A DNA stretch of 64,000 bases, from contig JALOQK010000002.1 of assembly GCA_025453395.1 (NCBI GenBank), forward strand, positions 85,625 through 149,624, in the 5' to 3' direction. The stretch's first letter is position 1, and each line of letters starts with the position of its first letter. The position numbers were made by a program, and so were the translations under genes. The notes beneath the pieces are model-generated. The model worked only from the letters and a program-made list of their open reading frames with translations. It searched no databases and was not told the DNA's origin. Positions 1,195-61,439 of the stretch are shown in pieces. Source of the DNA: Candidatus Omnitrophota bacterium (GTDB lineage Bacteria > Omnitrophota > Gorgyraeia > Gygaellales > Profunditerraquicolaceae).

Positions 1195-3824
1195 AAGCGG
1201 ATATTTTAAGAGAAAAATATTTGGATTTTTTTAAATCCAAAAAGCATAAGGTTGTCTTAAGCGATTCTTTGATTCCTGTTGATGACCCTACGGTTTTATT
1301 TACTCCTGCCGGGATGAACCAATTTAAAAAACAATTTATGGGGTTTAACGCAGGTTTTACCCGCGCGGTAAGTTCTCAGCGTTGCCTGCGCACTGATGAC
1401 CTGGATAAAGTGGGGAAAACCGCCGTGCATCATACTTTCTTTGAGATGCTGGGTAATTTTTCTTTTGGCGATTATTTTAAAGATGAGGCGATACAGTGGG
1501 CGTGGGAATTCTTAATTGAAGAATTAAAGATCCCCCAAGAAAGGCTTTGGGTTTCAGTTTACCAAGAGGATAGCGAAGCATATTTAATTTGGAAGGATAA
1601 AGTCGGTATCCCTAAAGAGAGAATTGTGAAGTTAGGCGATCATGATAATTTCTGGCCGGCAGATGCCAAAGAAAAAGGCCCCAACGGCCCCTGCGGCCCC
1701 TGTTCAGAAATATTTTATGACTTTGGAGAAGATGTTGGCTGTGGTGAGAAAGTTTGTGATCCGTCTTGTTCCTGCGGCAGATTTGCCGAGATTTGGAATT
1801 TAGTTTTTACCCAGTATAACCGCAAAGACGGCGGTATCTTGGAACCGTTGCCAAAGAAAAATATTGATACCGGTATGGGCTTGGAGCGCTTGACTGCGGT
1901 AATGCAGGGCGTGAAAAATAATTTCCAGACTGAATTGTTTCAGCCGATTGTTAAAGAAATAGAGGACAGAGGACAGAGGACAGAGGACAGAGAAAAAGAG
2001 AACCTGCTTTACGCGGTAAGCGACCATATTCGTGCTGTAGTTTTCTCAATTTATGACGGGGTTATTCCTTCTAATGAGGCAAGAGGCTATGTAATAAGGA
2101 AAATTATCCGTAAGAGCCTGATGCATCTTAGGGCACTTGAAGTGAAGTTGCCGTTTTTATATAAATTAGTCCCGGTTGTATCGCAGGTAATGCTTAAGCC
2201 TTATCCAGAATTAAGAGAGCGTCAGGAAAATATCACCCAGATAATCTTAAGCGAGGAAAAGGCTTTCATTGCCACTCTTGAAACCAGCGATAAAATATTG
2301 TCCGATAAGTTCTCGGATAAGAAAAACTCCCAAGAAGATATATTAGGTGTTTTGGCCTTTGAGCTTTATGACACAAACGGAGTTCCTTTTGAAATTACTA
2401 AAGATTGGTTGTCTAAAAATAAATTTAGTTTCAAAGAAGAGAAGTTAGAAACTTGTTTTTCTTCCTGTATGGAAGAACAAAAGGCCCGCTCTAAACAAAA
2501 AAGCGCGATGAAGGGAGACGTCTTTGGTTTATCGCACGCGCATTTAGCAGTAAAGAAGACAAACTTTTTGGGGTATAAGAGTTTTTCAGGAACAGCCAAG
2601 TTGCTTAAGATTTTAACTGGCAAAAGCCAAGGAAAGAAAATAAAAGAGGGCGAAGAGGCGGTAGTAATTCTTGATAAGACTTGCTTTTATCCTGAATCTG
2701 GCGGCCAAGTCGGCGACACAGGGCTTATTATTAAGGGTAAGAATATTTTTGAAGTTTTAAGTACGCAAAAAGTGGACAAGGTAATTTTGCATCACGGTAG
2801 AGTTAAAAAGGGAAGTTTCAAGCTTCTTGATCAGGTAACCGCAGAGGTAGACCAGAAGAGGCGTATGGATATTGCCCGTAATCATACTACTACTCATCTT
2901 TTGCAAGCAGCATTAAGAAAAGTGCTGGGTGAGCATATTCGTCAGCAGGGATCTTTAGTTTCAGAAGAAAAATTGCGTTTTGACTTTAGCCACTTTAAAG
3001 CTATAACCGGTGAAGAACTTTCACGCATTGAAGAAGAAGTGAATAAAAATATTCTGGAGGCAGTTTCTTTAGAAGTTAAGGAAATGCCAATTGCTATGGC
3101 CAAGAAAAAAGGGGCATTGGCGTTTTTTGGCGAGAAATATGAGGATAAAGTGCGCATGGTTAGTGTCGCCGATGTGTCGCGCGAGCTTTGCGGCGGGACG
3201 CATCTAGACAATACTGCGCAAGCTGGAAGCTTTAAAATTATCCATGAAAGTTCTGTAGCAAGCGGGGTTAGAAGAATTGAGGCAGTGACTGGTTTAGCTT
3301 CCTATAAGGCTTTTAAGAAAGAGGAAGAGCTTCTTGGAGATCTGGCTCAAACTTTTAATGTGAATCAAGAAAGTTTAAAAATAGCCGCCCAGAAAAGTTT
3401 AGCCCGGGTCAAGGAACTGGAAAAAGAATTAAGCGCTAATAAAATGACTAATCTTAAATCCGGTATTGACCAGATTATAAATAGTGCATGCGAGATAAAT
3501 GGCGTAAAATTTATTGGCGCATCTTTAGATAATCTTGACATACAGCTATTGCGTAAGAATATGGATTTGGTTAAGGAGAAAACCAATAACGCGGTTGTGG
3601 CCTTGGCATCAGCAACAGCCGGTAAAGTATTTTTGGTTATTGGGGTGACCTCGGATATTGCTGGAACAAAATTTGACGCTAATATGATCATTAAACAGGT
3701 GGGGCAATTTATCGGTGGTTCAGGCGGGGGAAGAGCGGATTTTGCCCAAGCAGGCGGCACAAAGCCAGAGAATATAGATTTAGTCTTTGACCAGATTAAG
3801 AAAATAATGGGGAATTTACAATGA
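1191..3824 (+). CDS. alaS: alanine--tRNA ligase
   Basis: 877 aa with class II AlaRS motifs, the editing-domain HxxxH/CGGTH zinc motif and a C-terminal DHHA1 domain; contains an in-frame heptamer repeat insertion at 1963-1990. Confidence 0.95.
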   Translation: MKADILREKYLDFFKSKKHKVVLSDSLIPVDDPTVLFTPAGMNQFKKQFMGFNAGFTRAVSSQRCLRTDDLDKVGKTAVHHTFFEMLGNFSFGDYFKDEAIQWAWEFLIEELKIPQERLWVSVYQEDSEAYLIWKDKVGIPKERIVKLGDHDNFWPADAKEKGPNGPCGPCSEIFYDFGEDVGCGEKVCDPSCSCGRFAEIWNLVFTQYNRKDGGILEPLPKKNIDTGMGLERLTAVMQGVKNNFQTELFQPIVKEIEDRGQRTEDREKENLLYAVSDHIRAVVFSIYDGVIPSNEARGYVIRKIIRKSLMHLRALEVKLPFLYKLVPVVSQVMLKPYPELRERQENITQIILSEEKAFIATLETSDKILSDKFSDKKNSQEDILGVLAFELYDTNGVPFEITKDWLSKNKFSFKEEKLETCFSSCMEEQKARSKQKSAMKGDVFGLSHAHLAVKKTNFLGYKSFSGTAKLLKILTGKSQGKKIKEGEEAVVILDKTCFYPESGGQVGDTGLIIKGKNIFEVLSTQKVDKVILHHGRVKKGSFKLLDQVTAEVDQKRRMDIARNHTTTHLLQAALRKVLGEHIRQQGSLVSEEKLRFDFSHFKAITGEELSRIEEEVNKNILEAVSLEVKEMPIAMAKKKGALAFFGEKYEDKVRMVSVADVSRELCGGTHLDNTAQAGSFKIIHESSVASGVRRIEAVTGLASYKAFKKEEELLGDLAQTFNVNQESLKIAAQKSLARVKELEKELSANKMTNLKSGIDQIINSACEINGVKFIGASLDNLDIQLLRKNMDLVKEKTNNAVVALASATAGKVFLVIGVTSDIAGTKFDANMIIKQVGQFIGGSGGGRADFAQAGGTKPENIDLVFDQIKKIMGNLQ
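1963..1990 (+). repeat. heptanucleotide microsatellite (GAGGACA)x4, in-frame inside alaS (encodes EDRGQRTEDR)
   Basis: Four perfect tandem heptamers read directly from the sequence. Confidence 0.9.
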
Positions 3825-5050
3825 AGATCATCCGTCCTACAGGCAAGCAATTAGAGAAAATATGCCAGCGCGCCTCTTGGCGTTCCAAGCGCGTGGAAGA
3901 AAAGGTCAAGAAAATAATTGAGGATGTGCGCCTTTTTGGCGATGAGGCCGTGCTTAAATATACCCGTAAGTTTGACGGGGTGCGTATGCCAGCGCGGCAG
4001 CTGCGCGTTTCACAGATAGAAATTAGCGGCGCCTATCAGAACATCACCCCTAATTTTATTCCCACTTTGAAGATGGTCATGGAAAATGTGAATAGATTTT
4101 ATCGTAAGACCATCAAGAAATCATGGAGGATAAAAGACGCGGACGGGATATCTTTGGGCGAGAATTATACTGCCTTAGAAAGAGTGGGGATTTATATCCC
4201 TGCCGGGACCGCGCCGTTGGTTTCTACGGTTTACATGACAGTTTTGCCTGCCAGGATCGCCGGGGTGAAGAAAATTGTGTTGGCCAGCCCTCCGGACAAA
4301 AATGGTTTTATTAACCCGCATATTCTGGTTATGGCGGATTTATTAAAGGTAGATGAGATCTATCGCGTGGGCGGAGCGCAGGCCATTGCGGCTTTAGCTT
4401 ATGGTACAAAGACTATTGCCCGGGTTGATAAAATTGTCGGGCCGGGGAATGTGTACGTAAGCGAAGCCAAGCGGCAGGTTTTTGGCAAGGTGGATATTGA
4501 TATGATTGCCGGGCCAACGGAGTTGGTAGTTATTGCTAACCGTTTGACTGATCCGGACTTTATTGTTTCGGACCTTAAGGCGCAGGCCGAACATAGCGCG
4601 GGATTGGCGATTTTAATTACCAATTCTAAATCTTTGGCCAAAGAAATAAACAGCCGTTGTTCCGAAGACAACGGGTATATTATTTTGGTCAAGAATTTAG
4701 AGCAGGCAGTTGAGATTTCAAATCAGATTGCTCCGGAGCATCTGGAAATTCTGGTGAATAACCCGAACCGTTTGGTAAAATTAGTGAAAAATGCGGGAGC
4801 AGTTTTCTTAGGGCCTTATAGCCCGGCGGCAGTCGGAGATTATGTGGCCGGCCCCAGCCACGTTTTGCCCACATCCGGCACAGCCAGATTTTTCTCCGGG
4901 CTTTGCGCAACAGACTTTATCAAAAGTATCCATGTTATCGGTTATTCCAAAAAAGCCCTTGAGAAAGTAAAAGAGCCTTTAGAGAAAATAGCCGGTATTG
5001 AGGGTTTGTTGCGGCACGTGGATTCGGTAAAAGCAAGGTTTAATAAATAG
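3821..5050 (+). CDS. hisD: histidinol dehydrogenase
   Basis: 409 aa with conserved HisD motifs (GPGNVYV, AEHSAG); ATGA overlap with alaS. Confidence 0.93.
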   Translation: MKIIRPTGKQLEKICQRASWRSKRVEEKVKKIIEDVRLFGDEAVLKYTRKFDGVRMPARQLRVSQIEISGAYQNITPNFIPTLKMVMENVNRFYRKTIKKSWRIKDADGISLGENYTALERVGIYIPAGTAPLVSTVYMTVLPARIAGVKKIVLASPPDKNGFINPHILVMADLLKVDEIYRVGGAQAIAALAYGTKTIARVDKIVGPGNVYVSEAKRQVFGKVDIDMIAGPTELVVIANRLTDPDFIVSDLKAQAEHSAGLAILITNSKSLAKEINSRCSEDNGYIILVKNLEQAVEISNQIAPEHLEILVNNPNRLVKLVKNAGAVFLGPYSPAAVGDYVAGPSHVLPTSGTARFFSGLCATDFIKSIHVIGYSKKALEKVKEPLEKIAGIEGLLRHVDSVKARFNK

Positions 5051-6284: not shown

Positions 6285-6488
6285 AAATAGTTTTAAGTAG
6301 TATAGTAATATATCATTTAGCTAAAAACCATAATTAAAAATTCAAAGTTTTAAATTTTACGCTGTGATTTTACGTTTTGCACTTTTAGCTTTACATTATA
6401 CAATGTATTTTTAATTTTACGCTATAGTTTTACGCTTTTCGCTTTACGCTTTTAGCTTATAACTTATAGCTTACAGCTTACAGCTAAT
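6285..6488. repeat. intergenic repeat element, copy A of the ~66 bp unit family (TTTTAATTTTACGCTATAGTTTTACGCTTTTCGCTTT..CAATGTATTTTTA), about two units plus an AGCTTACA octamer tail
   Basis: Near-identical units are also present at 8942-9136 and 10949-11070. Confidence 0.85.
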
Positions 6489-8941: not shown

Positions 8942-9136
8942 GCGAAAAGCGTAAAGCGAAAAACGCAAAACCATAATTTAAAATTCAAAATTTTTAATTT
9001 TACGCTATAGTTTTACACTTTTCGCTTTTAGCTTTACACTCTGCAATGTATTTTTAGTTTTTAATTTTGCACTGTAGTTTTACGTTTTTCGCCTTTAGCT
9101 TTACACTCTGCAATGTATTTTTAGTACTCTTAAGAT
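8942..9136. repeat. intergenic repeat element copy B: GCGAAAAGCG-rich arm, AAAATTCAAAATT motif, then two tandem ~66 bp units
   Basis: Units at about 8993-9058 and 9059-9124 are near-identical; the upstream arm is a reverse-complement match to the TTTTCGCTTTACGC cores. Confidence 0.85.
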
Positions 9137-10948: not shown

Positions 10949-11070
10949 AAGCGCAAAACGCAAAGCGAAAAATTTAAAACTATAATTCAAAATTAAAAAG
11001 TTTTTAATTTTACGCTATAGTTTTACGCTTTTCGCTTTTAGTTTTACGCTAACGTTAAGGAGGATGTTAA
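10949..11070. repeat. intergenic repeat element copy C (GCAAAACGCAAAGCGAAAA arm, AAAATTCAAAATT motif, one truncated ~66 bp unit)
   Basis: Shares a unit of 50 bp or more with copies A and B. Confidence 0.85.
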
Positions 11071-11071
11071 T

Positions 11072-35874: not shown

Positions 35875-36708
35875 ATGGGTATAAAAAAATTCAGGCCCAC
35901 AAGTCCGTCACGGCGCTGGATCACTGGTCCGGATTTTACTGAGATTACTAAGGATTATCCCGAGAAGTCGCTTGTAACTGTTTTAAAGAGGACAGGCGGC
36001 AGAAATTCAAGCGGCCGTTTGACTGTCAGGCACCAGGGTGGCGGGCACAAACGTAAATTGCGCTTGATTGATTTTAAGCGCGATCTTTTGGATAAGCCGG
36101 CAAAAGTCCTTGCTATTGAGTACGATCCGAATCGTTCGGCAAGGCTGGCTTTAGTTGAATACCAGCCAAACCAGAAAAGATATATCATCGCTCCTCTAGG
36201 ATTAAATGTGGGAGATCAGATTGTTTCTTCAAATGACAAAGAAACAGAAATCAAGGTTGGCAATTGTTTGGTTTTGCGTTATATCCCTTCAGGCACGCTC
36301 ATTCATAATATTGAAATCCGCCCGGGCAAAGGCGCGCAGATTGTAAGAAGCGCTGGTTCAAGCGCGCAGATTATGGCCAAAGAAGGCGATTACGCGCATG
36401 TGCGTTTGCCTTCAGGCGAAGTGCGCTTAATAAGTTTAGACTGCCATGCGGTTATTGGGCAGGTGGGCAATGTTGAGCATGAAGCCATTTCTGTTGGCAA
36501 GGCCGGCCGTTCCCGTTGGATGGGTATTCGCCCGACAGTAAGAGGATTAGCCATGAATCCGGTTGACCATCCGCATGGCGGAGGCGAAGGAAAATCAGGG
36601 CAGGGTAATCCTCATCCAGTGTCCCCATGGGGCCAGCCGACTAAGGGTTACAAAACCAGGAAACCAAAGCGATATTCTAATAAATTTATAGTTAAAAGAA
36701 GAAAGTAA
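35875..36708 (+). CDS. rplB: 50S ribosomal protein L2
   Basis: 277 aa L2 with the conserved C-terminal block ([14 protein letters not shown]). Confidence 0.96.
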
Positions 36709-36711
36709 TTT

Positions 36712-36800
36712 AAAATTAAAAATGAAAAATCTAAAATTAAAATCTTTAGGAAATGGTTTTAAGGTAAATTTTGAATTTTTACTTTTTAATTTTGAATTTC
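36712..36800. mobile_element. ~89 bp AT-rich miniature inverted-repeat element (MITE-like): left arm AAAATTAAAAATGAAAAATCTAAAATTAAAAT, right arm reverse complement GAAATTCAAAATTAAAAAGTAAAAATTCAAAATTTAC, no cargo
   Basis: Imperfect ~30 bp terminal inverted repeats read from the sequence; sits in a 135 bp rplB-rpsS spacer of the S10 operon. Confidence 0.45.
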
Positions 36801-43050: not shown

Positions 43051-44421
43051 ATGATAGCTAATACCTTTAACTTCAGCCCATTAATCAACAGCTTTCGCAT
43101 TCCGGATCTAAAAAAGCGCCTTTGGGTTACTCTGGGCCTTTTGGCTGTTTATCGCATGGGTTGTTATTTGCCTATTCCCGGGATTGACGGGATAGCGTTA
43201 GCGGAATTTATCAGTCAAATCTCCAAGTCTTCTGGTGGAGCGCTCTTTGGCATTATTAATATGTTTTCCGGCGGCGCCATGGAGAGGCTGACCATTTTTG
43301 CTTTGGGGATCATGCCGTATATCTCCAGCTCCATTATTTTGCAGCTTTTGACTGCGGTTATCCCGGCATTAGAAAAGCTGGCCAAAGAAGGAAAAGCCGG
43401 TTATCAAAAAATAAATCAGTTTACCCGTTATGGAACGGTAGTCTTGGCAGTTATACAATCATTTTTTATCGCCAAGTGGCTTGAGGGTTTGGGCAGGACC
43501 ATGCAGGATATGCCCAAGATTGTTTTAGCTCCGGGCTTGGGTTTTGAACTTTTAACAGTTTTAACTCTTACTACCGGAACGATTTTCTTGATGTGGCTGG
43601 GCGAGCAGATACAGGAGCGCGGCATCGGTAACGGCATATCGCTTGTTATTACAGCCGGTATTGTCTCGCGTATCCCGGCTGCCTTTCATCAGCTTTTTGT
43701 TTTATTGTCGCCCTTTAATCCCACTCGGCGGCAGCTGCAGCCGGCGGTATTACTGCTGATGGTTTTTCTTTTAGCGGCGGTAGTTTTCGCGGTTATACTT
43801 GTTACCCAGGGGCAGAGAAGGATCCCTGTGCAGTATGCCCGAAGAGTAGTAGGGCGAAAGGTTTTCGGAGGGCAGAGCACCTATATCCCCCTTAAGGTAG
43901 ACACATCAGGGGTTATCGCGATCATTTTTGCGCAGTCCATAATACTTTTTCCGGCGACTCTGGCATCATTCATACCGAATCCTGCGTTTCAGGGTTTTGC
44001 GCATGCTTTAACCCGCGGCAATGTCGGGTATTCTATAGTTTACGCTCTTTTAATTATATTCTTCTGCTATTTTTACACCGCGGTTGTTTTTAATCCGGTG
44101 GACTTAGCCGATAACATGAAAAAATACGGCGGGTTTATTCCGGGTATCCGCCCGGGAGTTTCAACCGCGGAATTCTTAGATTACACCATGACCCGTATTA
44201 CTTTGGCAGGCGCGCTATTTATCGCCTTTGTGGCGATATTCCCTGACGCGTTAATGGCATGGCTAAAGGTGCCGTATCTTGTCGCGTCATTTTTCGGCGG
44301 CACAGGCGTTCTTATTATCGTGGGGGTTATGCTGGATACGATCAAACAGCTTGAATCGCATTTGATGATGCATCACTACGAGGGTTTTATCAAAGGCGCA
44401 AGGATTAAGGGAAGAAGATAA
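43051..44421 (+). CDS. secY: preprotein translocase subunit SecY
   Basis: 456 aa with 10 TM segments and conserved SecY blocks. Confidence 0.96.
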   Translation: MIANTFNFSPLINSFRIPDLKKRLWVTLGLLAVYRMGCYLPIPGIDGIALAEFISQISKSSGGALFGIINMFSGGAMERLTIFALGIMPYISSSIILQLLTAVIPALEKLAKEGKAGYQKINQFTRYGTVVLAVIQSFFIAKWLEGLGRTMQDMPKIVLAPGLGFELLTVLTLTTGTIFLMWLGEQIQERGIGNGISLVITAGIVSRIPAAFHQLFVLLSPFNPTRRQLQPAVLLLMVFLLAAVVFAVILVTQGQRRIPVQYARRVVGRKVFGGQSTYIPLKVDTSGVIAIIFAQSIILFPATLASFIPNPAFQGFAHALTRGNVGYSIVYALLIIFFCYFYTAVVFNPVDLADNMKKYGGFIPGIRPGVSTAEFLDYTMTRITLAGALFIAFVAIFPDALMAWLKVPYLVASFFGGTGVLIIVGVMLDTIKQLESHLMMHHYEGFIKGARIKGRR

Positions 44422-44741
44422 AAATTAAAAATTCAAAATTAAAAATTAAGAAATAAAAGCAAAAAGATAAAAGCAAAAAGATAAAAGCAAAAAATATAGT
44501 AGTAAAAAAATTTAGTTATTTGCTCATTGGTAAATCAAATTTTCTTTTAAAGCTCAATAATTATTTATTTTTTATATTCTTAGGTTTTTAAATTTGAGAT
44601 TTTAGGTTTTTGTTTTAATTTTTTATTTTAAATTTTAAATTAACAACAGTGTTTTTTTTGATTTTAATGTTTTCTAATTTTGTTTTTATGTTTTTAATTT
44701 TGCATTTTTCATTTTAAACTTTAAATTAAAGAGGGTTTCTT
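44422..44741. repeat. 320 bp AT-rich noncoding element: left end AAAATTAAAAATTCAAAATTAAAAATT, a 14-mer tandem (ATAAAAGCAAAAAG)x3, right end reverse complement AATTTAAAGTTTAAAATGAAAAATGCAAAATTAAAA
   Basis: Seen in sequence; the ends resemble the terminal inverted repeats of the 36712-36800 element. Confidence 0.45.
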
Positions 44742-51990: not shown

Positions 51991-51991
51991 A

Positions 51992-52062
51992 CACCCGGCG
52001 CAATTTGATGCGCCGGTGCGCAATTATCAGGCAACACCCGGCGCAATTTGATGCGCCGGTGT
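51992..52062 (+). other. two tandem copies (43 bp period) of a GC-rich hairpin CACCCGGCGCA-ATTTGA-TGCGCCGGTG between the dehydratase large-subunit gene and pilT
   Basis: 8 bp perfect stems with 6 nt loops read from the sequence; the second is followed by a pyrimidine-rich stretch. Confidence 0.55.
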
Positions 52063-52086
52063 GCCCTTTCTGGGCAAGGAGGACTA

Positions 52087-53147: not shown

Positions 53148-53648
53148 TTGCGTTTAGAAGGAAAGGCCATAAAGTTAGGCGATGATATCAACACGGATTT
53201 TATTATTTCCGGCCGCTACAAATTCGCCATTACCGATATGAAAGAATTGGCCAAGCATATTATGGAAGATATCGACCCAGCATTCCCATCCAAGATTACG
53301 CCCGGTCAATCTATCCTGGTTGCTGGAAGAAATTTCGGCATGGGCTCATCGCGCGAGCAGGCGCCATTGGTAATAAAAGAATCCGGAATAATTGCTGTGG
53401 TTGCTAAATCTTTTGCCAGGATATTTTATCGTAACGCTTTTAATATAGGATTAGCCCTGGTGGAATTGGATACTGATAAAATAAAAGAAGGCGACGCCTT
53501 AGATATTGATTTAGATAAAGGCGCTGCCAGGAATGTTTCATCCGGCGTTGATTTTAAAATCTCCCCCTTGCCGGAATTCATGCAAGCTCTTTTACGCGAA
53601 GGCGGAGTGGTAAATTACGTTAAAAAGTATGGCGAGTTAGAAATTTAG
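53148..53648 (+). CDS. aconitase-superfamily dehydratase small subunit, LeuD/HacB type
   Basis: 166 aa type-2 LeuD-like protein (swivel domain). Confidence 0.85.
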   Translation: MRLEGKAIKLGDDINTDFIISGRYKFAITDMKELAKHIMEDIDPAFPSKITPGQSILVAGRNFGMGSSREQAPLVIKESGIIAVVAKSFARIFYRNAFNIGLALVELDTDKIKEGDALDIDLDKGAARNVSSGVDFKISPLPEFMQALLREGGVVNYVKKYGELEI

Positions 53649-53695
53649 AATTAAAAAATAAAAATTCAAAATTAAAATACAAAATGCTGGTATAA

Positions 53696-54076
53696 TTGCT
53701 AATGGAAAATAAAGGGGCAAGTTTTCAGAGTAATTATGATATAAAAAACAGGACCTACGCTTTCTCGGTTAGTATTGTTAATTTTGTTTCTGATTTACCA
53801 AAAGATAACGCAACTCACATTATTTCTAATCAATTGTTGGCTAGTGCTACAAGTGTAGGTGCTAATGTTATTGAAGCGCAAGCATCAAGTTCACGCAAAG
53901 ATTTTACAAATTTCTTGAATCATTCTTTGAAATCAGGAAATGAGACAAAATATTGGCTATGTTTGTTACGGGATACTGGCAGAGCCGAATATCCTAAAGT
54001 CAGCAAGCTTATTAATGAAGTAACTGAAATTAATAATATACTTGGAAAAAGCATTATTACTTTACGTAATAAGTAG
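53696..54076 (+). CDS. four-helix-bundle protein (TIGR02436-like; '23S rRNA intervening-sequence protein' family)
   Basis: 126 aa; the segment SNQLLASATSVGANVIEAQASSSRKDFTNFLNHSLKSGNETKYWLCLLRD matches the family's hallmark. Confidence 0.75.
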   Translation: MLMENKGASFQSNYDIKNRTYAFSVSIVNFVSDLPKDNATHIISNQLLASATSVGANVIEAQASSSRKDFTNFLNHSLKSGNETKYWLCLLRDTGRAEYPKVSKLINEVTEINNILGKSIITLRNK

Positions 54077-54124
54077 CATTTATGTTTTTAATTTCTAATT
54101 TTTAATTTTTCATTTTTAATTCCT

Positions 54125-55216
54125 ATGCCCTACACCATTACTCTTATCCCAGGCGACGGAATTGGCCCGGAAGTAGCCAGGGCCGCGCAAGCTTGTATTG
54201 ACGCAACCGGTGTTAAGATAAGCTGGGATCAGGCGCAAGCCGGCCAAGACGCCTTAGAGCAATGCGGGGAACTTCTTCCTGAAGCCACCCTTTCATCTAT
54301 CAAAAAAAATAAAATTGCATTAAAAGGTCCGATCACCACTCCTATTGGAAAAGGTTTCCGCTCGGTGAATGTGGCTATTCGTCAGGCTTTGGATCTTTAC
54401 GCCTGCGTGCGTCCGGCAAAATCGTATCCGGGGGTAAAAAGCCTGTATAAAGATATCAATCTGGTGATTGTGCGCGAGAACAGCGAAGACCTTTACGCCG
54501 GTATTGAATTTGAGCAGGGCAAGCCCGAGACCGAAGAGCTTATCAAAAAAATAGATTCCTATAGTGTTAAGAAAATCCGCCCTGATTCAGGCATTTCCAT
54601 TAAACCCATTTCGCTTTATGCCGCCGAAAGGATCGTAAAGTTTGCTTTTGAATACGCCTTGGCAAATAACCGCAAGAAAGTCACCTGTGTGACTAAAGCC
54701 AATATCATGAAATATACCGACGGGCTTTTTCTGGCGGCGGCAAAGGGGGTTGCTCAAAGCTATGAAGGCAGGGTATTATTTGAAGAGGCCCTGGTGGATA
54801 ATATGGCAATGCAGCTTGTGCAAAGGCCGCACTATTATGATGTGCTGGTGCTTCCTAATCTTTATGGGGATATTCTTTCGGATCTTTGCGCTGGATTAAT
54901 CGGAGGTTTAGGAATTGCTCCGGGAGCCAATATCGGAGAAAAGATAGCGGTATTTGAGGCAGTGCACGGCTCTGCTCCTAAATACGCTGGTTTGAATAAA
55001 GTCAACCCTAGCGCGATGATCTTGTCCGGGGTTTTGATGTTGCGCCATCTTGGAGAAAATGAAGCTGCCAACCGCTTGGAACACGCCTTAAGCGCAGTAC
55101 TTAAAGAAGGCAGATTTGTTACCTATGATTTAAAACCGCATCGCGATGACCCTTCGGCAGTGGGCACAAAACAAATGGCAGAAGCGGTAATAAGAAAGTT
55201 ACATGAGGTTACGTGA
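54125..55216 (+). CDS. beta-decarboxylating dehydrogenase of the isocitrate/homoisocitrate/isopropylmalate family; substrate-site motif [18 protein letters not shown] resembles the isocitrate/homoisocitrate type more than LeuB
   Basis: 363 aa with [10 protein letters not shown] and a Ser-containing substrate loop. Confidence 0.8.
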
Positions 55217-55222
55217 GGTTAA

Positions 55223-55660
55223 GTGATGTTACATCAGGTTGCTAAAAGCACAGTATCAAAAACAGCGCCTTATGAAAAACTCAAGTTTTATCAGGATATT
55301 TGCCAGATTCGCAAGTTAACCTATCAAATAACAGAGAATATTGTTCGTTCACATATGCGTTTAGCTTCTCAGATGAGAGATGCCGCGCGTTCTGCTAAGC
55401 AAAATCTAAGAGAAGGATATCGCAAAGGCACATTAGGAGAATTTATACATAGCATAAAGATAAGTCAGGGGTCTTTAGCAGAGTTAAGTGGCGACATGGA
55501 AGATTGCTTGGAAGACGGTATTATTCAGAAAACTGATTTTGATATTTTTATGAAGCTTTATCGTAGTGCAGACTATATGTCAAATAGGTATTTAATTTCG
55601 TTATATAAGATAGAAAAAGAAGGCACATGGCGCACTTTCGCTAAGCGTAGTGCTAAATAG
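55223..55660 (+). CDS. four-helix-bundle protein (TIGR02436-like), second paralog
   Basis: 145 aa (YEKLKFYQ.., GSLAEL..) of the same family as 53696-54076. Confidence 0.7.
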   Translation: MMLHQVAKSTVSKTAPYEKLKFYQDICQIRKLTYQITENIVRSHMRLASQMRDAARSAKQNLREGYRKGTLGEFIHSIKISQGSLAELSGDMEDCLEDGIIQKTDFDIFMKLYRSADYMSNRYLISLYKIEKEGTWRTFAKRSAK

Positions 55661-55664
55661 TCTT

Positions 55665-55828
55665 CCTGATTGTTGAATATTGTTTTTGCTCTTTGTTTCT
55701 AAGCAACCTCATTTAACATTATGTAACTTTATGCAACCTCATTTAACCTGATTGTTGAATATTGTTTTTGCTCTTTGTTTCTAAGCAACCTCATTTAACA
55801 TCATGTAACTTTATGCAACCTCATTTAA
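55665..55828 (+). repeat. 82 bp direct tandem duplication (2 copies, 1 mismatch) plus a partial third start; each unit contains two GCAACCTCATTTAAC sub-repeats
   Basis: Read directly from the sequence. Confidence 0.95.
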
Positions 55829-56763: not shown

Positions 56764-58017
56764 ATGGACTATGATTTAATTATTATCGGCGCCGGTTGGG
56801 CGGGATTGACCGCTGCTAAAAAGGCTGTCAAGTCCGGGATGAAAGTCTGCCTGATTGAGAAGGATAAAACAGGCGGTGTCTGCCTTAACCGCGGGTGTAT
56901 TCCTACCAAGGCTTTAATACATTGGGCTAAAATAAATTCTCTTAATTCTAAACCCGTAGATTTTTCCCTTGCCCAGGCGAAAAAGAATAAAATTGTTTCT
57001 CAGCTTGCCGCGGGAGTGCAATTTTCTTTAAAAGGCGTAGACGTTTTAGCTGCTACGGCAAAATTAACCGGCCCCAATAAAGTCCTAGCCGGCGATAAAG
57101 AAATTAGCGCTAAATTCATTCTTGTTTCAACCGGTTCGCTGCCTTTTGAATTGCCGGATTTAAAATTTGCTGCGCCTAAGATTATTTCCAGTGATCAACT
57201 ATTGCAATTGGAGAAGCTGCCCCCGGAAATACTAATTGTGGGAGCCGGGGTGATCGGATGCGAGTTTGCTTCGTTATTCAATCAATTAGGGGTAAAAGTC
57301 ACCCTCGCGGAGAAAATGCCGTTTATCTTGCCTGGGCAGGACGCGCAGATCCAGAAGAAAATAGAAACAACTTTTAAGAAAAAAGGGATCAATGTTTTGA
57401 TTGATGCTGATGTAAAAAGTATGAATTTGGACGGCTATTCTTTGATAGCTGTCTGCGTGGGTAGAGTTGCTAATGTTTCCCTCCAGGGCGCTCAAGAGGT
57501 CGGATTAAAGATCCAGAAGCAGGGATTCGCAGTGGATGAATATTTACGCACGACTGTGCCCAATATTTTTGCCGCTGGAGACTGCACCGGAAAGATTATG
57601 CTTGCGCATTATGCTTCTTATCAGGCAGAAGTGGCAGTGGATAATATGCTGGGGGCTAATAGAAAAGCCGATAATCCTTATGTGCCCAATTGCATTTTTA
57701 CCGATCCTTTGATTGCGAGCGTTGGCTTAACTGAAGAAGAGGCGATGAAGCGGGCAGTGGATACGGTTATGCACAAGTTTGATTTTATGGCTTCGGGCAT
57801 GGCCAGAGTGATGGATGCCGCCGAAGGTTTTATAAAGATTATTTCTGATAAAGCAAGTGGCAAGATCTTAGGCGCCAGCATGATCGGGCCGGAAGTTACC
57901 GAGCTTATATCTGTTATTACTGTGGCAGCTTCCAACGGTTTGACCGTAAAACAGCTTAAGGAAACTATTTTTGCTCATCCGACTTTGAGTGAATCTATCC
58001 GCGAGGCGTTAGAATAA
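56764..58017 (+). CDS. lpdA: dihydrolipoyl dehydrogenase (E3) / pyridine nucleotide-disulfide oxidoreductase
   Basis: 417 aa with the redox-active CLNRGC site and a C-terminal HPTLSE dimerisation motif. Confidence 0.8.
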   Translation: MDYDLIIIGAGWAGLTAAKKAVKSGMKVCLIEKDKTGGVCLNRGCIPTKALIHWAKINSLNSKPVDFSLAQAKKNKIVSQLAAGVQFSLKGVDVLAATAKLTGPNKVLAGDKEISAKFILVSTGSLPFELPDLKFAAPKIISSDQLLQLEKLPPEILIVGAGVIGCEFASLFNQLGVKVTLAEKMPFILPGQDAQIQKKIETTFKKKGINVLIDADVKSMNLDGYSLIAVCVGRVANVSLQGAQEVGLKIQKQGFAVDEYLRTTVPNIFAAGDCTGKIMLAHYASYQAEVAVDNMLGANRKADNPYVPNCIFTDPLIASVGLTEEEAMKRAVDTVMHKFDFMASGMARVMDAAEGFIKIISDKASGKILGASMIGPEVTELISVITVAASNGLTVKQLKETIFAHPTLSESIREALE

Positions 58018-58034
58018 GAGAGAGAGGACTTGTT

Positions 58035-58265
58035 ATGATTGAAGTTAAACTTCCAGAGTTGGGCGAGGGGATCAAGCAGGCTACAGTTTCTTACTGGTTT
58101 TTTCAGGAAGGGCAAGCTGTAAAAGAAAAAGAAGAATTAGTTGAACTTACTACCGACAAAGCCACTTTTAATCTTCCCAGTCCGGCAAGCGGAGTATTAA
58201 AACAGGTGCTTATTAAGGAAGGCGAAACCATCGCCATCGGCACCGTCTTGGCAATAATATCGTAG
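58035..58265 (+). CDS. free-standing lipoyl/biotinyl attachment domain protein (resembles an E2 N-terminal lipoyl domain; possibly a truncated E2)
   Basis: 76 aa with the lipoyl-lysine motif TDKAT; the stop codon lies inside the left terminal inverted repeat of the downstream element. Confidence 0.7.
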   Translation: MIEVKLPELGEGIKQATVSYWFFQEGQAVKEKEELVELTTDKATFNLPSPASGVLKQVLIKEGETIAIGTVLAIIS

Positions 58266-58506
58266 ACGCTTTAGCTAACCCCATGTAGCACAATAACTTA
58301 TGAAACAAATACGCCATAGAAAAGGGGCACTTTGCCTTTCTGCCCCGAAAGGGCGCACTTGGCATTCATTTTTGCCAAGGTGCAATAGGCAAAGGTGCGT
58401 CCCAGTAATTAGCGTACTTTGCCTTCCTGTGATTTTAGTTTTTTAAACCCTACCCATATTTGTTTTGTAATCTTTTGTGTGGCATAGTATTAGCTAAAGC
58501 GTCTAC
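58263..58506. mobile_element. 244 bp element bounded by perfect 17 bp inverted repeats (GTAGACGCTTTAGCTAA / TTAGCTAAAGCGTCTAC) with an internal ~80 nt GC-rich extended hairpin (58324-58403); MITE or structured ncRNA
   Basis: Inverted repeats and nested complementary blocks (GGGGCACTTTGCC..GGCAAAGGTGCGTCCC; GCGCACTTGGCA..TGCCAAGGTGCA) read from the sequence. Confidence 0.55.
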
Positions 58507-58521
58507 AATGAATTATTTTAC

Positions 58522-58550
58522 TTGACAAGGGATTATTTGTTTGGTATATG
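58522..58550 (+). promoter_or_regulatory. sigma70-like promoter TTGACA-17-(TGg)TATATG upstream of the HTH/ACP/reductase genes
   Basis: Perfect -35 and an extended -10 read from the sequence. Confidence 0.5.
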
Positions 58551-58580
58551 TAGGATTAGTTAAGATATGTTAAAAGAGGT

Positions 58581-58817
58581 GTGGATATGAAAGAGAAGAA
58601 AAGCAAAGAAATTATGACCGCAAAAGATGTGGCAGATTATCTGGGATTGCATCCTTTGACTGTGCACCGTTACGCCCGCCAGGGTAAAATTCCCGCGTTT
58701 AAGATCGGCACTGATTGGAGATTTCACCGTAAGTATATTGAGCGCTGGATCAAGGAAAAGTTGACTTGTCAGGCTAGGGCCCAAGTTGTACTCAACACAG
58801 AAAAACCGCAATCATAA
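58581..58817 (+). CDS. excisionase-family helix-turn-helix DNA-binding protein (likely ATG start at 58587)
   Basis: TAKDVADYLGLHPLTVHRYARQGKIPAFKIGTDWRF matches the Xis/MerR-like HTH_17 pattern. Confidence 0.7.
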   Translation: MDMKEKKSKEIMTAKDVADYLGLHPLTVHRYARQGKIPAFKIGTDWRFHRKYIERWIKEKLTCQARAQVVLNTEKPQS

Positions 58818-60195: not shown

Positions 60196-60783
60196 ATGCA
60201 TTATTTACAGCTTAGCAAGTTAAATAAGAAGCCTTATTTTGATATAGGCCAAATAGCCGATACCTTAGGGATTACGAAGCCTTCGGCGCGGGTTATTGCC
60301 AGCCGTTATGTAAAACAAGGGATACTAATTAGGCTCAAAAACAATTGTTATGTTACTTCCGAGCGCTGGCAGGCGCTTGATTCAATGGCTTTGTTTTCTC
60401 TTGCCAATATCCTGCAGGTGCCTTCGTATATATCATTTCTTTCTGCTTTAGGCTTTCATGAAATATCTACCCAGGTTGCGCGTGGCGTTATTGAAAGTGT
60501 TTCTCTTAAGCGTTCCCGTTCTATCCGTGTAAAAGAGCAAGAATTTGTTTATTATAAACTTAGGAAAAAACATTATTTCGGTTTTCATAAGAAAGATGGT
60601 ATTTTTATGGCAACTGCCGAAAAGGCGCTTGCCGACGCTTGTTATCTTTATTCATTAAACCGTTATGCGCTTGATTTTTCCGCGCTTAACCTTTCCCGTT
60701 TAAATAAGCGCGAATTATCAGGTGTCATCAGGCATTACCCAAAACGTACGCAGCAGATAGTGAAAAAAATATGCAAGATTTAA
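60196..60783 (+). CDS. AbiEi-like antitoxin/transcriptional regulator (type IV TA / abortive infection)
   Basis: 195 aa with an N-terminal wHTH-like region; overlaps the downstream AbiEii-family gene by 13 nt. Confidence 0.5.
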   Translation: MHYLQLSKLNKKPYFDIGQIADTLGITKPSARVIASRYVKQGILIRLKNNCYVTSERWQALDSMALFSLANILQVPSYISFLSALGFHEISTQVARGVIESVSLKRSRSIRVKEQEFVYYKLRKKHYFGFHKKDGIFMATAEKALADACYLYSLNRYALDFSALNLSRLNKRELSGVIRHYPKRTQQIVKKICKI

Positions 60784-61439
60784 TTAAGCAGGAACAATTT
60801 GAGTTAGAGGTATTGGATAAGTTAAATACCGCGCGCCTGTTGAATAAACTTATTTTCTGCGGCGGCACGATGCTTAGGCTTTGTTATGGGCTCCAGAGAT
60901 TTTCTGTAGATCTTGATTTTTGGCTGGCGCGCAAGGTCTCCCACGCGAAACTTTTTAAAGAATTAAAAGATATTCTATCCGCTTCCTATACAATAAGAGA
61001 TAGTGCTAATAAATTTCACACTATTCTTTTTGAAATTAAATCAAGCCGTTATCCGCGCGCGCTAAAGATCGAAGTGCGAAAACAGGCAAGAAAGGTAAAA
61101 GCCGATACTGCCATTGCCTATAGCCAATATTCTAATACTCAAGTATTTCTTAAAGTTCTGTCTTTGCAAGATATGATGCGCAATAAGGCAGAAGCTTTCC
61201 TAAGCCGTAAAGAAGCCCGGGATATCTTTGATATGGAGTTTTTGTTTAAGAAGGGGATTTTGTTGGGGATCCCTAAGAAGGATATCGGCAAGATACTTTC
61301 TACCCTTGATGCGTTGACAAAGAAAGATTATCAGGTAAAATTAGGTGCGCTACTTTTGCCCGAACAGCGCGCCTATTACACAAAAGAAAATTTTAAGATT
61401 TTAAGAATGGCGTTAGAGGAGCGTATTTCTTCCATATAA
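60771..61439 (+). CDS. nucleotidyltransferase AbiEii/AbiGii toxin family protein
   Basis: 222 aa; CGGTMLRLCYGLQRFSVDLDFW matches the family's GG..DxD nucleotidyltransferase signature. Confidence 0.72.
   Translation: MQDLIKQEQFELEVLDKLNTARLLNKLIFCGGTMLRLCYGLQRFSVDLDFWLARKVSHAKLFKELKDILSASYTIRDSANKFHTILFEIKSSRYPRALKIEVRKQARKVKADTAIAYSQYSNTQVFLKVLSLQDMMRNKAEAFLSRKEARDIFDMEFLFKKGILLGIPKKDIGKILSTLDALTKKDYQVKLGALLLPEQRAYYTKENFKILRMALEERISSI

Follow-up and report, generated by a model that had tools for sequence, protein, structure and literature searches.

A gene-less inverted-repeat element in an Omnitrophota genome is very probably a miniature transposon of a RAYT-like Y1 transposase family

Introduction

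The question raised by this locus was whether a short, strongly folding segment between two bacterial genes is mobile DNA or a structured non-coding RNA (ncRNA). The segment lies near the 3' end of a 64,000-nucleotide stretch of genome from a Candidatus Omnitrophota bacterium (assembly GCA_025453395.1, contig JALOQK010000002.1, positions 85,625 to 149,624). This whole stretch is referred to as the window, and its own numbering is used below. The segment separates a lipoyl-carrier gene from a gene encoding an HTH_17 protein. A first-pass annotation, made from the letters of the window, had described it as an element bounded by inverted repeats and had offered two readings, a transposable element of the miniature inverted-repeat type (MITE) or a structured ncRNA, situated at the junction between core genes and an accessory island.

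The analysis reported here indicates that the element is very probably a gene-less, non-autonomous miniature transposon, to be called either a MITE or a dimer of terminal inverted repeats (TIRs) similar to REPINs, the inverted doublets of repetitive extragenic palindromes (REPs). The family to which it is assigned is of the "TIRYT/TIRtron" type, in which genes resembling those of REP-associated tyrosine transposases (RAYTs) are flanked by TIRs.

Results

Two long inverted arms surround a structured core

The left terminal repeat, the 17-nt GTAGACGCTTTAGCTAA, was located at 58262-58278 on the + strand, and its perfect reverse complement at 58490-58506 on the - strand, with GTAG as the first four bases at both termini. 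The repeats had been correctly recognized in the first-pass annotation, but its left boundary was one base off, and the unit bounded by the repeats measured 245 bp instead of 244 bp. The chance expectation for a perfect 17-nt pair in 64 kb was ~0.0015 (non-overlapping arms not more than 400 nt apart; 64,000 x 400 / 4^17), and the 17-mer with up to three mismatches was found three times in the window against 0.16 expected. The terminal repeats were prolonged imperfectly into arms of 53 nt (58259-58311 on the + strand and 58457-58509 on the - strand) with 77% complementarity.

The arms enclosed a central core of 145 nt (58312-58456) with no detectable relative. A 10-11-nt motif, GCAC(C)TTKGCM, recurred five times in the core, on one strand or the other (58327+, 58355+, 58373-, 58388- and 58414+), and the core could be folded either as a nested structure or as three hairpins. 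The GC content was 53% at 58320-58405, compared with 32-36% in the arms and 43% window-wide, in agreement with the GC-rich core noted before, although the contrast was modest. Internal open reading frames (ORFs) did not exceed 50 amino acids (longest 48-50 aa), and the 48-aa ORF of the core, when used as a protein query, yielded neither relatives nor candidate further copies.

The same termini bound a Y1 transposase gene

The exact 17-mer was searched in a collection holding one genome per GTDB species (185,579 genomes, 596 Gb), and was found at 36 loci. A single match was present at 35 of them, only one of which (L103) was from Omnitrophota; the chance prediction for a 17-mer in 596 Gb was roughly 70, about the number of single-match loci found. 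The remaining locus, L107, belonged to the Candidatus Omnitrophota metagenome-assembled genome (MAG) DeMMO4_15 and had two oppositely oriented copies of the 17-mer, at 3681-3697 (+) and 4511-4527 (-), 830 nt apart. This pair bounded an 847-bp unit with one ORF of 228 aa, and both ends of the unit were identical to those of the window element.

The product of the 228-aa ORF matched PF01797 (Y1_Tnp) with 53 bits against a cutoff of 23, and contained the motifs HYH and YIERNP, which were invariant across its relatives. The best NCBIfam model was REP_Tyr_transpos with 64.9 bits, below the 80-bit cutoff, while the IS200 model NF033573 gave no match to this protein. When a profile of nine family members was compared with PDB entries, the best match was E. 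coli TnpA_REP (4ER8, E = 3e-6), and the transposases of IS200/IS605 had E values of at least 0.06. As judged from these comparisons, the ORF is a predicted Y1/HUH transposase gene nearer to the RAYTs than to IS200/IS605. The proteins of the L107 type had a C-terminal extension of roughly 100 aa, in which Pfam found no helix-turn-helix (HTH) domain even at E <= 5. The family comprised 3,944 proteins at E < 1e-10, and the organism names, where given, were Omnitrophota or unclassified "bacterium". A tblastn search with the Y1 protein found no Y1 gene in the 64-kb window.

Termini and an inner block are conserved in the Y1 family

Homologues with 71-75% identity, found in the three independent contexts L121, L122/L123 and L124/L125, had the same termini as L107, identical or in variant form. 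Their left end was GTAGACGC(T/G)TTAGC(T/C)AAC and their right end ...(A)AGCGTCTAC; in L124/L125 the right end was identical to that of the window element, and one homologue (L124) had CTAG in place of GTAG. Every full-length element had an inner block, TTACAAAAC (TTACGTAAC at right ends), at a distance of exactly 37 nt from its terminus. The window element also carried this second block at an offset of 37, as TTATGAAAC in the left arm (58298-58306) and as TTACAAAAC, read on the - strand, in the right arm (58462-58470). The alignment of ends, which covered seven left ends plus right ends, showed that both arms of the window element were homologous to the transposon ends over about 50 nt.

A metagenome scan with the 17-mer detected 54 single matches. 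Only one of them, L033, extended further, to 24-nt identity with the left end of the window element. On this 1-kb metagenome contig, a gene with the typical MPR... start began about 120 nt past the 24-nt match and was preceded by the same block of promoter and ribosome-binding site as other Y1 genes, which showed L033 to be the left end of a further Y1 unit. The block, roughly 50 nt long and of the form GTTAGATTT..ACGTCTATTAATAG..AGAAAGGGG, was observed upstream of the Y1 starts in L107 (3749-3804), L121, L122, L027 and L033, and contained ACGTCTA, similar to the terminus. Its interpretation as a subterminal recognition hairpin was considered and rejected. As the block was common to lineages with unrelated TIRs and stood directly before the start codon, it was read as a -35/-10 promoter with a ribosome-binding site.

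The base triplet to the left of the terminus was ATC in three of the seven independent left ends (the window element, L033 and L124) and was represented by ATCC in a fourth. The calculated chance of three exact ATC among seven was about 1e-4. A short target preference of this kind is typical of Y1 transposases, and a target-site duplication is not expected from Y1/HUH transposition. The ATC left flank and the lack of a target-site duplication at the window element thus fit a mechanism of the Y1 type.

More distant Y1 genes of the phylum (36% identity; L027 and L124b) were flanked by different repeats, GGGGTCAGA(A/G)T(T/A)ATTTTT, in keeping with GGGGWSAS, the published motif of TIR-associated tyrosine transposases (TIRYTs) (PMC3733652; PMC6006769). 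Both kinds of repeat occurred together in L147 (5003-7473, equivalent to L124/L125), where two Y1_Tnp genes, one with GTAG-type and one with GGGGTCAG-type repeats, lay 1 kb apart, separated by three small ORFs and by a left end of the GTAG type in degenerate form. It was also observed that one locus, represented in two samples as L122 (about 2725-2750) and L123 (about 1406-1415), differed between them in a duplication of roughly 17 nt, GTCTACAAGGGGGG(G)TT, which abuts the right terminus of the Y1 unit. The left terminus of L121 had a short duplication of a similar kind, TCCGTAGA. These duplications may have been left behind when the ends were processed.

The element is absent from the orthologous gap of relatives

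The lipoyl-carrier gene (58035-58265, + strand) encodes a 76-aa protein with a Biotin_lipoyl domain, and its last codons and stop overlap the left terminus of the element, the TAG stop (58263-58265) being bases 2-4 of that terminus. The protein ends with ...GIIE* in the syntenic locus L023 and with ...AIIS* in the window, which suggested that one or two codons at the end of the gene were lost to the insertion and that the stop came with it. Two of the three frames of the terminus contain stop codons, and the upstream ORF ended inside or against the terminus in L107, L033 and L122 as well.

In L023, the gene order was Ldh, lipoamide dehydrogenase, LplA, lipoyl protein, HTH_17, ACP, reductase/epimerase and nitroreductase. 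The gap between the lipoyl and HTH_17 genes was 148 nt in L023 and 136 nt in the second syntenic locus, L029, and held a terminator hairpin and the same promoter as in the window (CTTGACAAT...TAGTATATATAGGATTAG). Nothing resembling the element was detected in this gap in either locus, indicating that the element is lineage-specific.

The comparison also clarified the surroundings of the element. The strong promoter said to follow it was recovered as a promoter-like TTGACA-17-TATATG at 58522-58550 (+), which lies outside the element and is conserved at orthologous loci lacking it, but which the consensus scan did not flag. The supposed excisionase-like gene downstream is indeed an HTH_17 (PF12728) gene (58587-58817, + strand, 76 aa), but the synteny with L023 and L029 showed that it is conserved at the head of a lipid-type operon (ACP/reductase/KAS), also in relatives without the element, and is thus a neighbour of the element rather than a part of it. 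For the same reason, binding of the element by the HTH_17 protein was rejected, the gene and its promoter being conserved where the element is absent. Nor is the site a junction of core genes and an accessory island, as the gene order on both sides was conserved in L023 and no integrase was found in the neighbourhood.

Two further differences in gene content were observed. L023 had an extra gene of 339 aa between the HTH_17 and ACP genes. In the window, an AbiEi-like gene (195 aa, no Pfam match) and an AbiEii gene (PF08843) at 60196-61439 stood between the reductase/epimerase and nitroreductase genes, which are adjacent in L023; the Abi pair looks like a small toxin-antitoxin insertion.

The terminator position of the lipoyl-carrier operon

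Since L023 and L029 have terminator hairpins where the window has the element, we considered that it could be a transposon-derived repeat exapted as a terminator or mRNA-stabilizing hairpin of the lipoyl-carrier operon. This reading is compatible with a transposon origin as a secondary function; as the main account of the element we regard it as unlikely. In its favor, REP elements are reported to be located mostly downstream of coding regions (PMC3733652), and the hairpin in L023 (2376-2414) turned out to be an inverted dimer of GGGACGGTTCTRTTTT, a sequence that also occurred twice in tandem in L033 (921-962), just upstream of the promoter of the Y1 gene. By its location, GGGACGGTTCTRTTTT represents a second repeat family associated with Y1 genes, and its dimer in L023 together with its copies beside the Y1 gene of L033 indicated that two Y1-associated repeat families have colonized one and the same slot. 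On the other hand, the consensus scan detected no site resembling an intrinsic terminator in the element, and the 3' tail AATGAATTATTTT was a poor U-tract.

Folding and the possibility of a dedicated ncRNA

A 261-nt stretch covering the element was folded as RNA with -96 kcal/mol on the + strand (z = -8.4) and -97.8 kcal/mol on the - strand (z = -8.1) against shuffled sequences, and the element as single-stranded DNA gave z = -6.2. The whole unit thus folded far better than its shuffles on either strand. The extended stem-loop of ~80 nt proposed in the first-pass annotation was reproduced when 58318-58408 was folded alone, as the nested blocks paired with -39.2 kcal/mol, but the minimum for the whole element consisted of three side-by-side hairpins instead. 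The core on its own was only moderately structured (z = -2.9 on + and -1.65 on -), indicating that most of the folding signal came from the terminal repeats.

The folding would be expected of a dedicated structured ncRNA, either a small RNA acting in trans or a cis-acting leader or 3' untranslated region of the adjacent operons, with the inverted termini as its closing helix. The position in the 3' region of a transcribed gene, the better folding of the core on the + strand and the alternative pairings offered by the five motif copies all agreed with such an RNA. However, the two strands of the whole unit folded equally well, as inverted repeats at the level of DNA would. The presumed closing helix was homologous to transposon ends, including the inner block at its fixed offset, and, as described above, the element was missing from the orthologous gap of the relatives. 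No Rfam family was found to fit either: at gathering thresholds the whole window contained two tRNAs only, and within 58000-58800 the best match at E <= 10 had 18 bits and E about 1. The element is also not a leader of the HTH operon, because the conserved promoter of that operon lies downstream of it. A dedicated ncRNA is therefore very improbable.

The last alternative, an attachment- or recombination-site remnant of an integrative element using the neighbouring "excisionase", could call on the frequent annotation of the HTH_17 family as excisionases and on the resemblance of the 10-11-nt core motifs in both orientations to arm-type binding sites, but it was already largely refuted and is scarcely credible, as the HTH_17 gene, promoter and operon are conserved in relatives without the element, no integrase is nearby, the flanking gene order continues as in L023, and the termini belong to a Y1 transposon.

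Copies and dispersal of the repeat

The reading of the element as a miniature transposon also has several points to its disadvantage. No second copy was present in the 64-kb window, and the copy count refers to this window alone, the source genome being outside the collections used for both the metagenome and the genome scans. The exact 17-mer was found in only two GTDB Omnitrophota genomes, with two copies and one copy, respectively, so that no large repeat population was evident. No target-site duplication was found, the flanks ...AATATC and AATGAA... containing no direct repeat. The 145-nt core had no counterpart in the full-length elements. MAGs are known to under-represent repeats. Solo or degenerate ends were detected away from or beside Y1 genes, namely L103, a shortened right end in L148 (3066-3103) and the degenerate left end in L147 (about 6608). 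They are evidence of dispersal, though not of a large population.

No match to the element was obtained by blastn against 72,556 plasmids and 50,697 phages. The matches of viral contigs to the 17-mer and to a degenerate 18-mer were singles without a nearby Y1 gene and were read as chance. In a viral scan for the core hairpin (GCACTTGGCA-N-TGCCAAGGTGC), four matches were obtained, which were taken as coincidence because one conserved phage coding sequence contained all of them. Across all the loci retrieved, neither similarity to the core sequence nor an excess of the core motif over chance was detected. A third repeat family, present as a nested dimer, may make up the core, or the core may be mere filler. 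Within the window, the gene for lipoamide dehydrogenase contained GTAGACGTTTTAGCTGC (57037-57053), of which the first 14 nt were those of the left-end variant of L122, probably by chance.

On balance, the MITE reading stood up to this analysis, whereas the structured-RNA reading did not. Termini identical to those of a transposase-encoding unit, homology of the arms over about 50 nt with a second block at fixed offset, and absence from orthologous sites were all observed, and the possession of both ends without a gene is the anatomy of a non-autonomous miniature element.

Other repeats in the window

Several repeats of other kinds were observed in the window. Two 23S_rRNA_IVP (four-helix-bundle) genes, at 53696-54076 and 55223-55660, were each bracketed by repeats (53638-54121 and 55195-55828, respectively). 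The former had A/T-rich heptamer-periodic repeats on both sides; the latter was accompanied by a 26-nt inverted repeat (55195-55220 and 55787-55812) and by an 82-bp tandem duplication with 99% identity (55665-55828). A/T-rich periodic repeat families, such as TTTTTAATTTTACGCTATAGTTTTACGCTTTTCGC... and TAAAAATTAAAAATTCAAAATTAAAA, were found in many intergenic gaps (6324-6471, 8967-9128, 10977-11071, 36703-36798 and 44415-44727). In addition, 51991-52076 contained a hairpin-forming unit, ACACCCGGCGCAATTTGATGCGCCGGTGCGC..., in two tandem 43-nt copies with 84% identity (family D5).

Discussion

A possible course of mobilization

The window element would consist of two inverted termini of an Omnitrophota Y1 (HUH) element, roughly 50 nt each, around 145 nt of hairpin-forming filler. 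Its presumed full-length partner is a unit of approximately 850 bp with the same GTAG-headed 17-bp repeats and a 228-aa RAYT-like protein. The TnpA of IS200/IS605 and E. coli TnpA_REP, the latter on REP hairpins, act on single-stranded DNA (PMC3479197, PMC6006769). By analogy with these enzymes, a Y1 transposase supplied in trans may move the element as single-stranded DNA, cutting and rejoining the termini on one strand; through pairing of its long arms, the excised strand would be able to form a hairpin. The element probably inserted into the final codons of the lipoyl-carrier gene, to which it would have supplied the TAG stop, and it would now lie where relatives hold a terminator hairpin. 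As in the case of REPs, a by-product would probably be a 3'-end hairpin for the upstream transcript.

Relationship to known systems

The closest described class is that of the TIRtrons, which encode TIRYTs, i.e. RAYT-like genes flanked by long TIRs that are also dispersed as singles or dimers (Di Nocera et al. 2013, PMC3733652; Quentin et al. 2018, PMC6006769, subclass 2.1), and which stand beside the classical REPIN-RAYT systems (PMC3116915, PMC5581495). The likeness extends to the Omnitrophota Y1 HUH protein, nearer to TnpA_REP than to IS200, to the gene with TIRs of 17-55 bp on either side in place of REP hairpins, and to the window element as a gene-less inverted TIR dimer elsewhere in a genome. 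Moreover, the sister lineages L027 and L124b in the same phylum carry the published GGGGWSAS motif. In contrast, the window-type TIR GTAGACGCTTTAGCTAA begins with GTAG and is without GGGGWSAS, which is found in most described members. The C-terminal extension of roughly 100 aa is without a Pfam HTH domain, where the subclass has Bac_DnaA_C, HTH_23 or HTH_28, and the spacer of the window dimer is long (145 nt) and structured. Omnitrophota were outside both surveys (PMC3733652, PMC6006769). The GTAG-type lineage is hybrid in appearance, with long TIRs as in TIRtrons and a GTAG tag as in classical REPs.

With the REPIN-RAYT systems (Bertels & Rainey 2011, PMC3116915; Messing et al. 2012, PMC3479197) the window element shares two inverted copies of a RAYT-flanking sequence forming one long hairpin, the GTAG tetranucleotide at the outer end, an extragenic location just 3' of a gene and, presumably, single-strand mobilization in trans by an HUH enzyme. 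It differs in that its repeat unit is not itself a palindrome of 20-40 nt; on inspection, the self-complementary part of the 17-24-nt unit was only the 8-nt TTAGCTAA, too short for a hairpin. The L107 protein scored below the NCBIfam cutoff for RAYTs. No sign of tens to hundreds of copies of the window-type repeat was seen in the window or in the two GTDB Omnitrophota genomes with the exact 17-mer. The short REP doublets described for REPINs are shorter than the 245 bp of the window element.

Classical bacterial MITEs are internally deleted derivatives of insertion sequences (reviewed by Delihas 2011, PMC3184786). The window element is similar in being short, non-coding, bounded by TIRs, present in some and absent from other related genomes, and in having termini common to a transposase element. 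It is different in that its partner is a Y1 HUH enzyme and not a DDE transposase, that a target-site duplication is missing and that its interior is unrelated to that of the partner.

The Y1 HUH transposase fold is shared with IS200/IS605, and the ATC left flank of the window-type ends recalls the short targets of IS608 and ISDra2, which are tetra- or pentanucleotides. The ends of IS200/IS605 elements are asymmetric subterminal hairpins without TIRs, and their miniature derivatives are PATE-type elements. The L107-type units differ from them in having TIRs, in the failure of their protein to match NF033573, and in the absence of a tnpB gene and an omega RNA.

A more far-reaching proposal would be that the Omnitrophota 228-aa Y1 family, with its thousands of members, constitutes an active, uncatalogued transposon type combining true TIRs (17-55 bp) with REP-style recognition of GTAG and with ATC as a short target, whose miniatures carry a structured GC-rich "cargo" core (the five GCAC(C)TTKGCM motifs) with its own function, for example as a protein-binding array or a hitch-hiking small RNA. 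We consider this proposal doubtful.

Significance

The element is ordinary, previously uncatalogued mobile DNA and not a new regulatory RNA; its class has already been described, and it is the phylum that is under-studied. No catalogued insertion sequences were found for Omnitrophota, a phylum without cultured genetics. The value of the result is practical, for annotation and for the repeat libraries of candidate-phylum MAGs, rather than conceptual. A striking structure was explained as mobile DNA, by which a false ncRNA call was avoided, and the termini, the inner conserved block and the likely ATC target were documented for a large lineage of Omnitrophota Y1 transposases. In addition, the occurrence in one intergenic slot of repeat dimers from two Y1-associated families, in two lineages, bears on how such repeats take over terminator positions.

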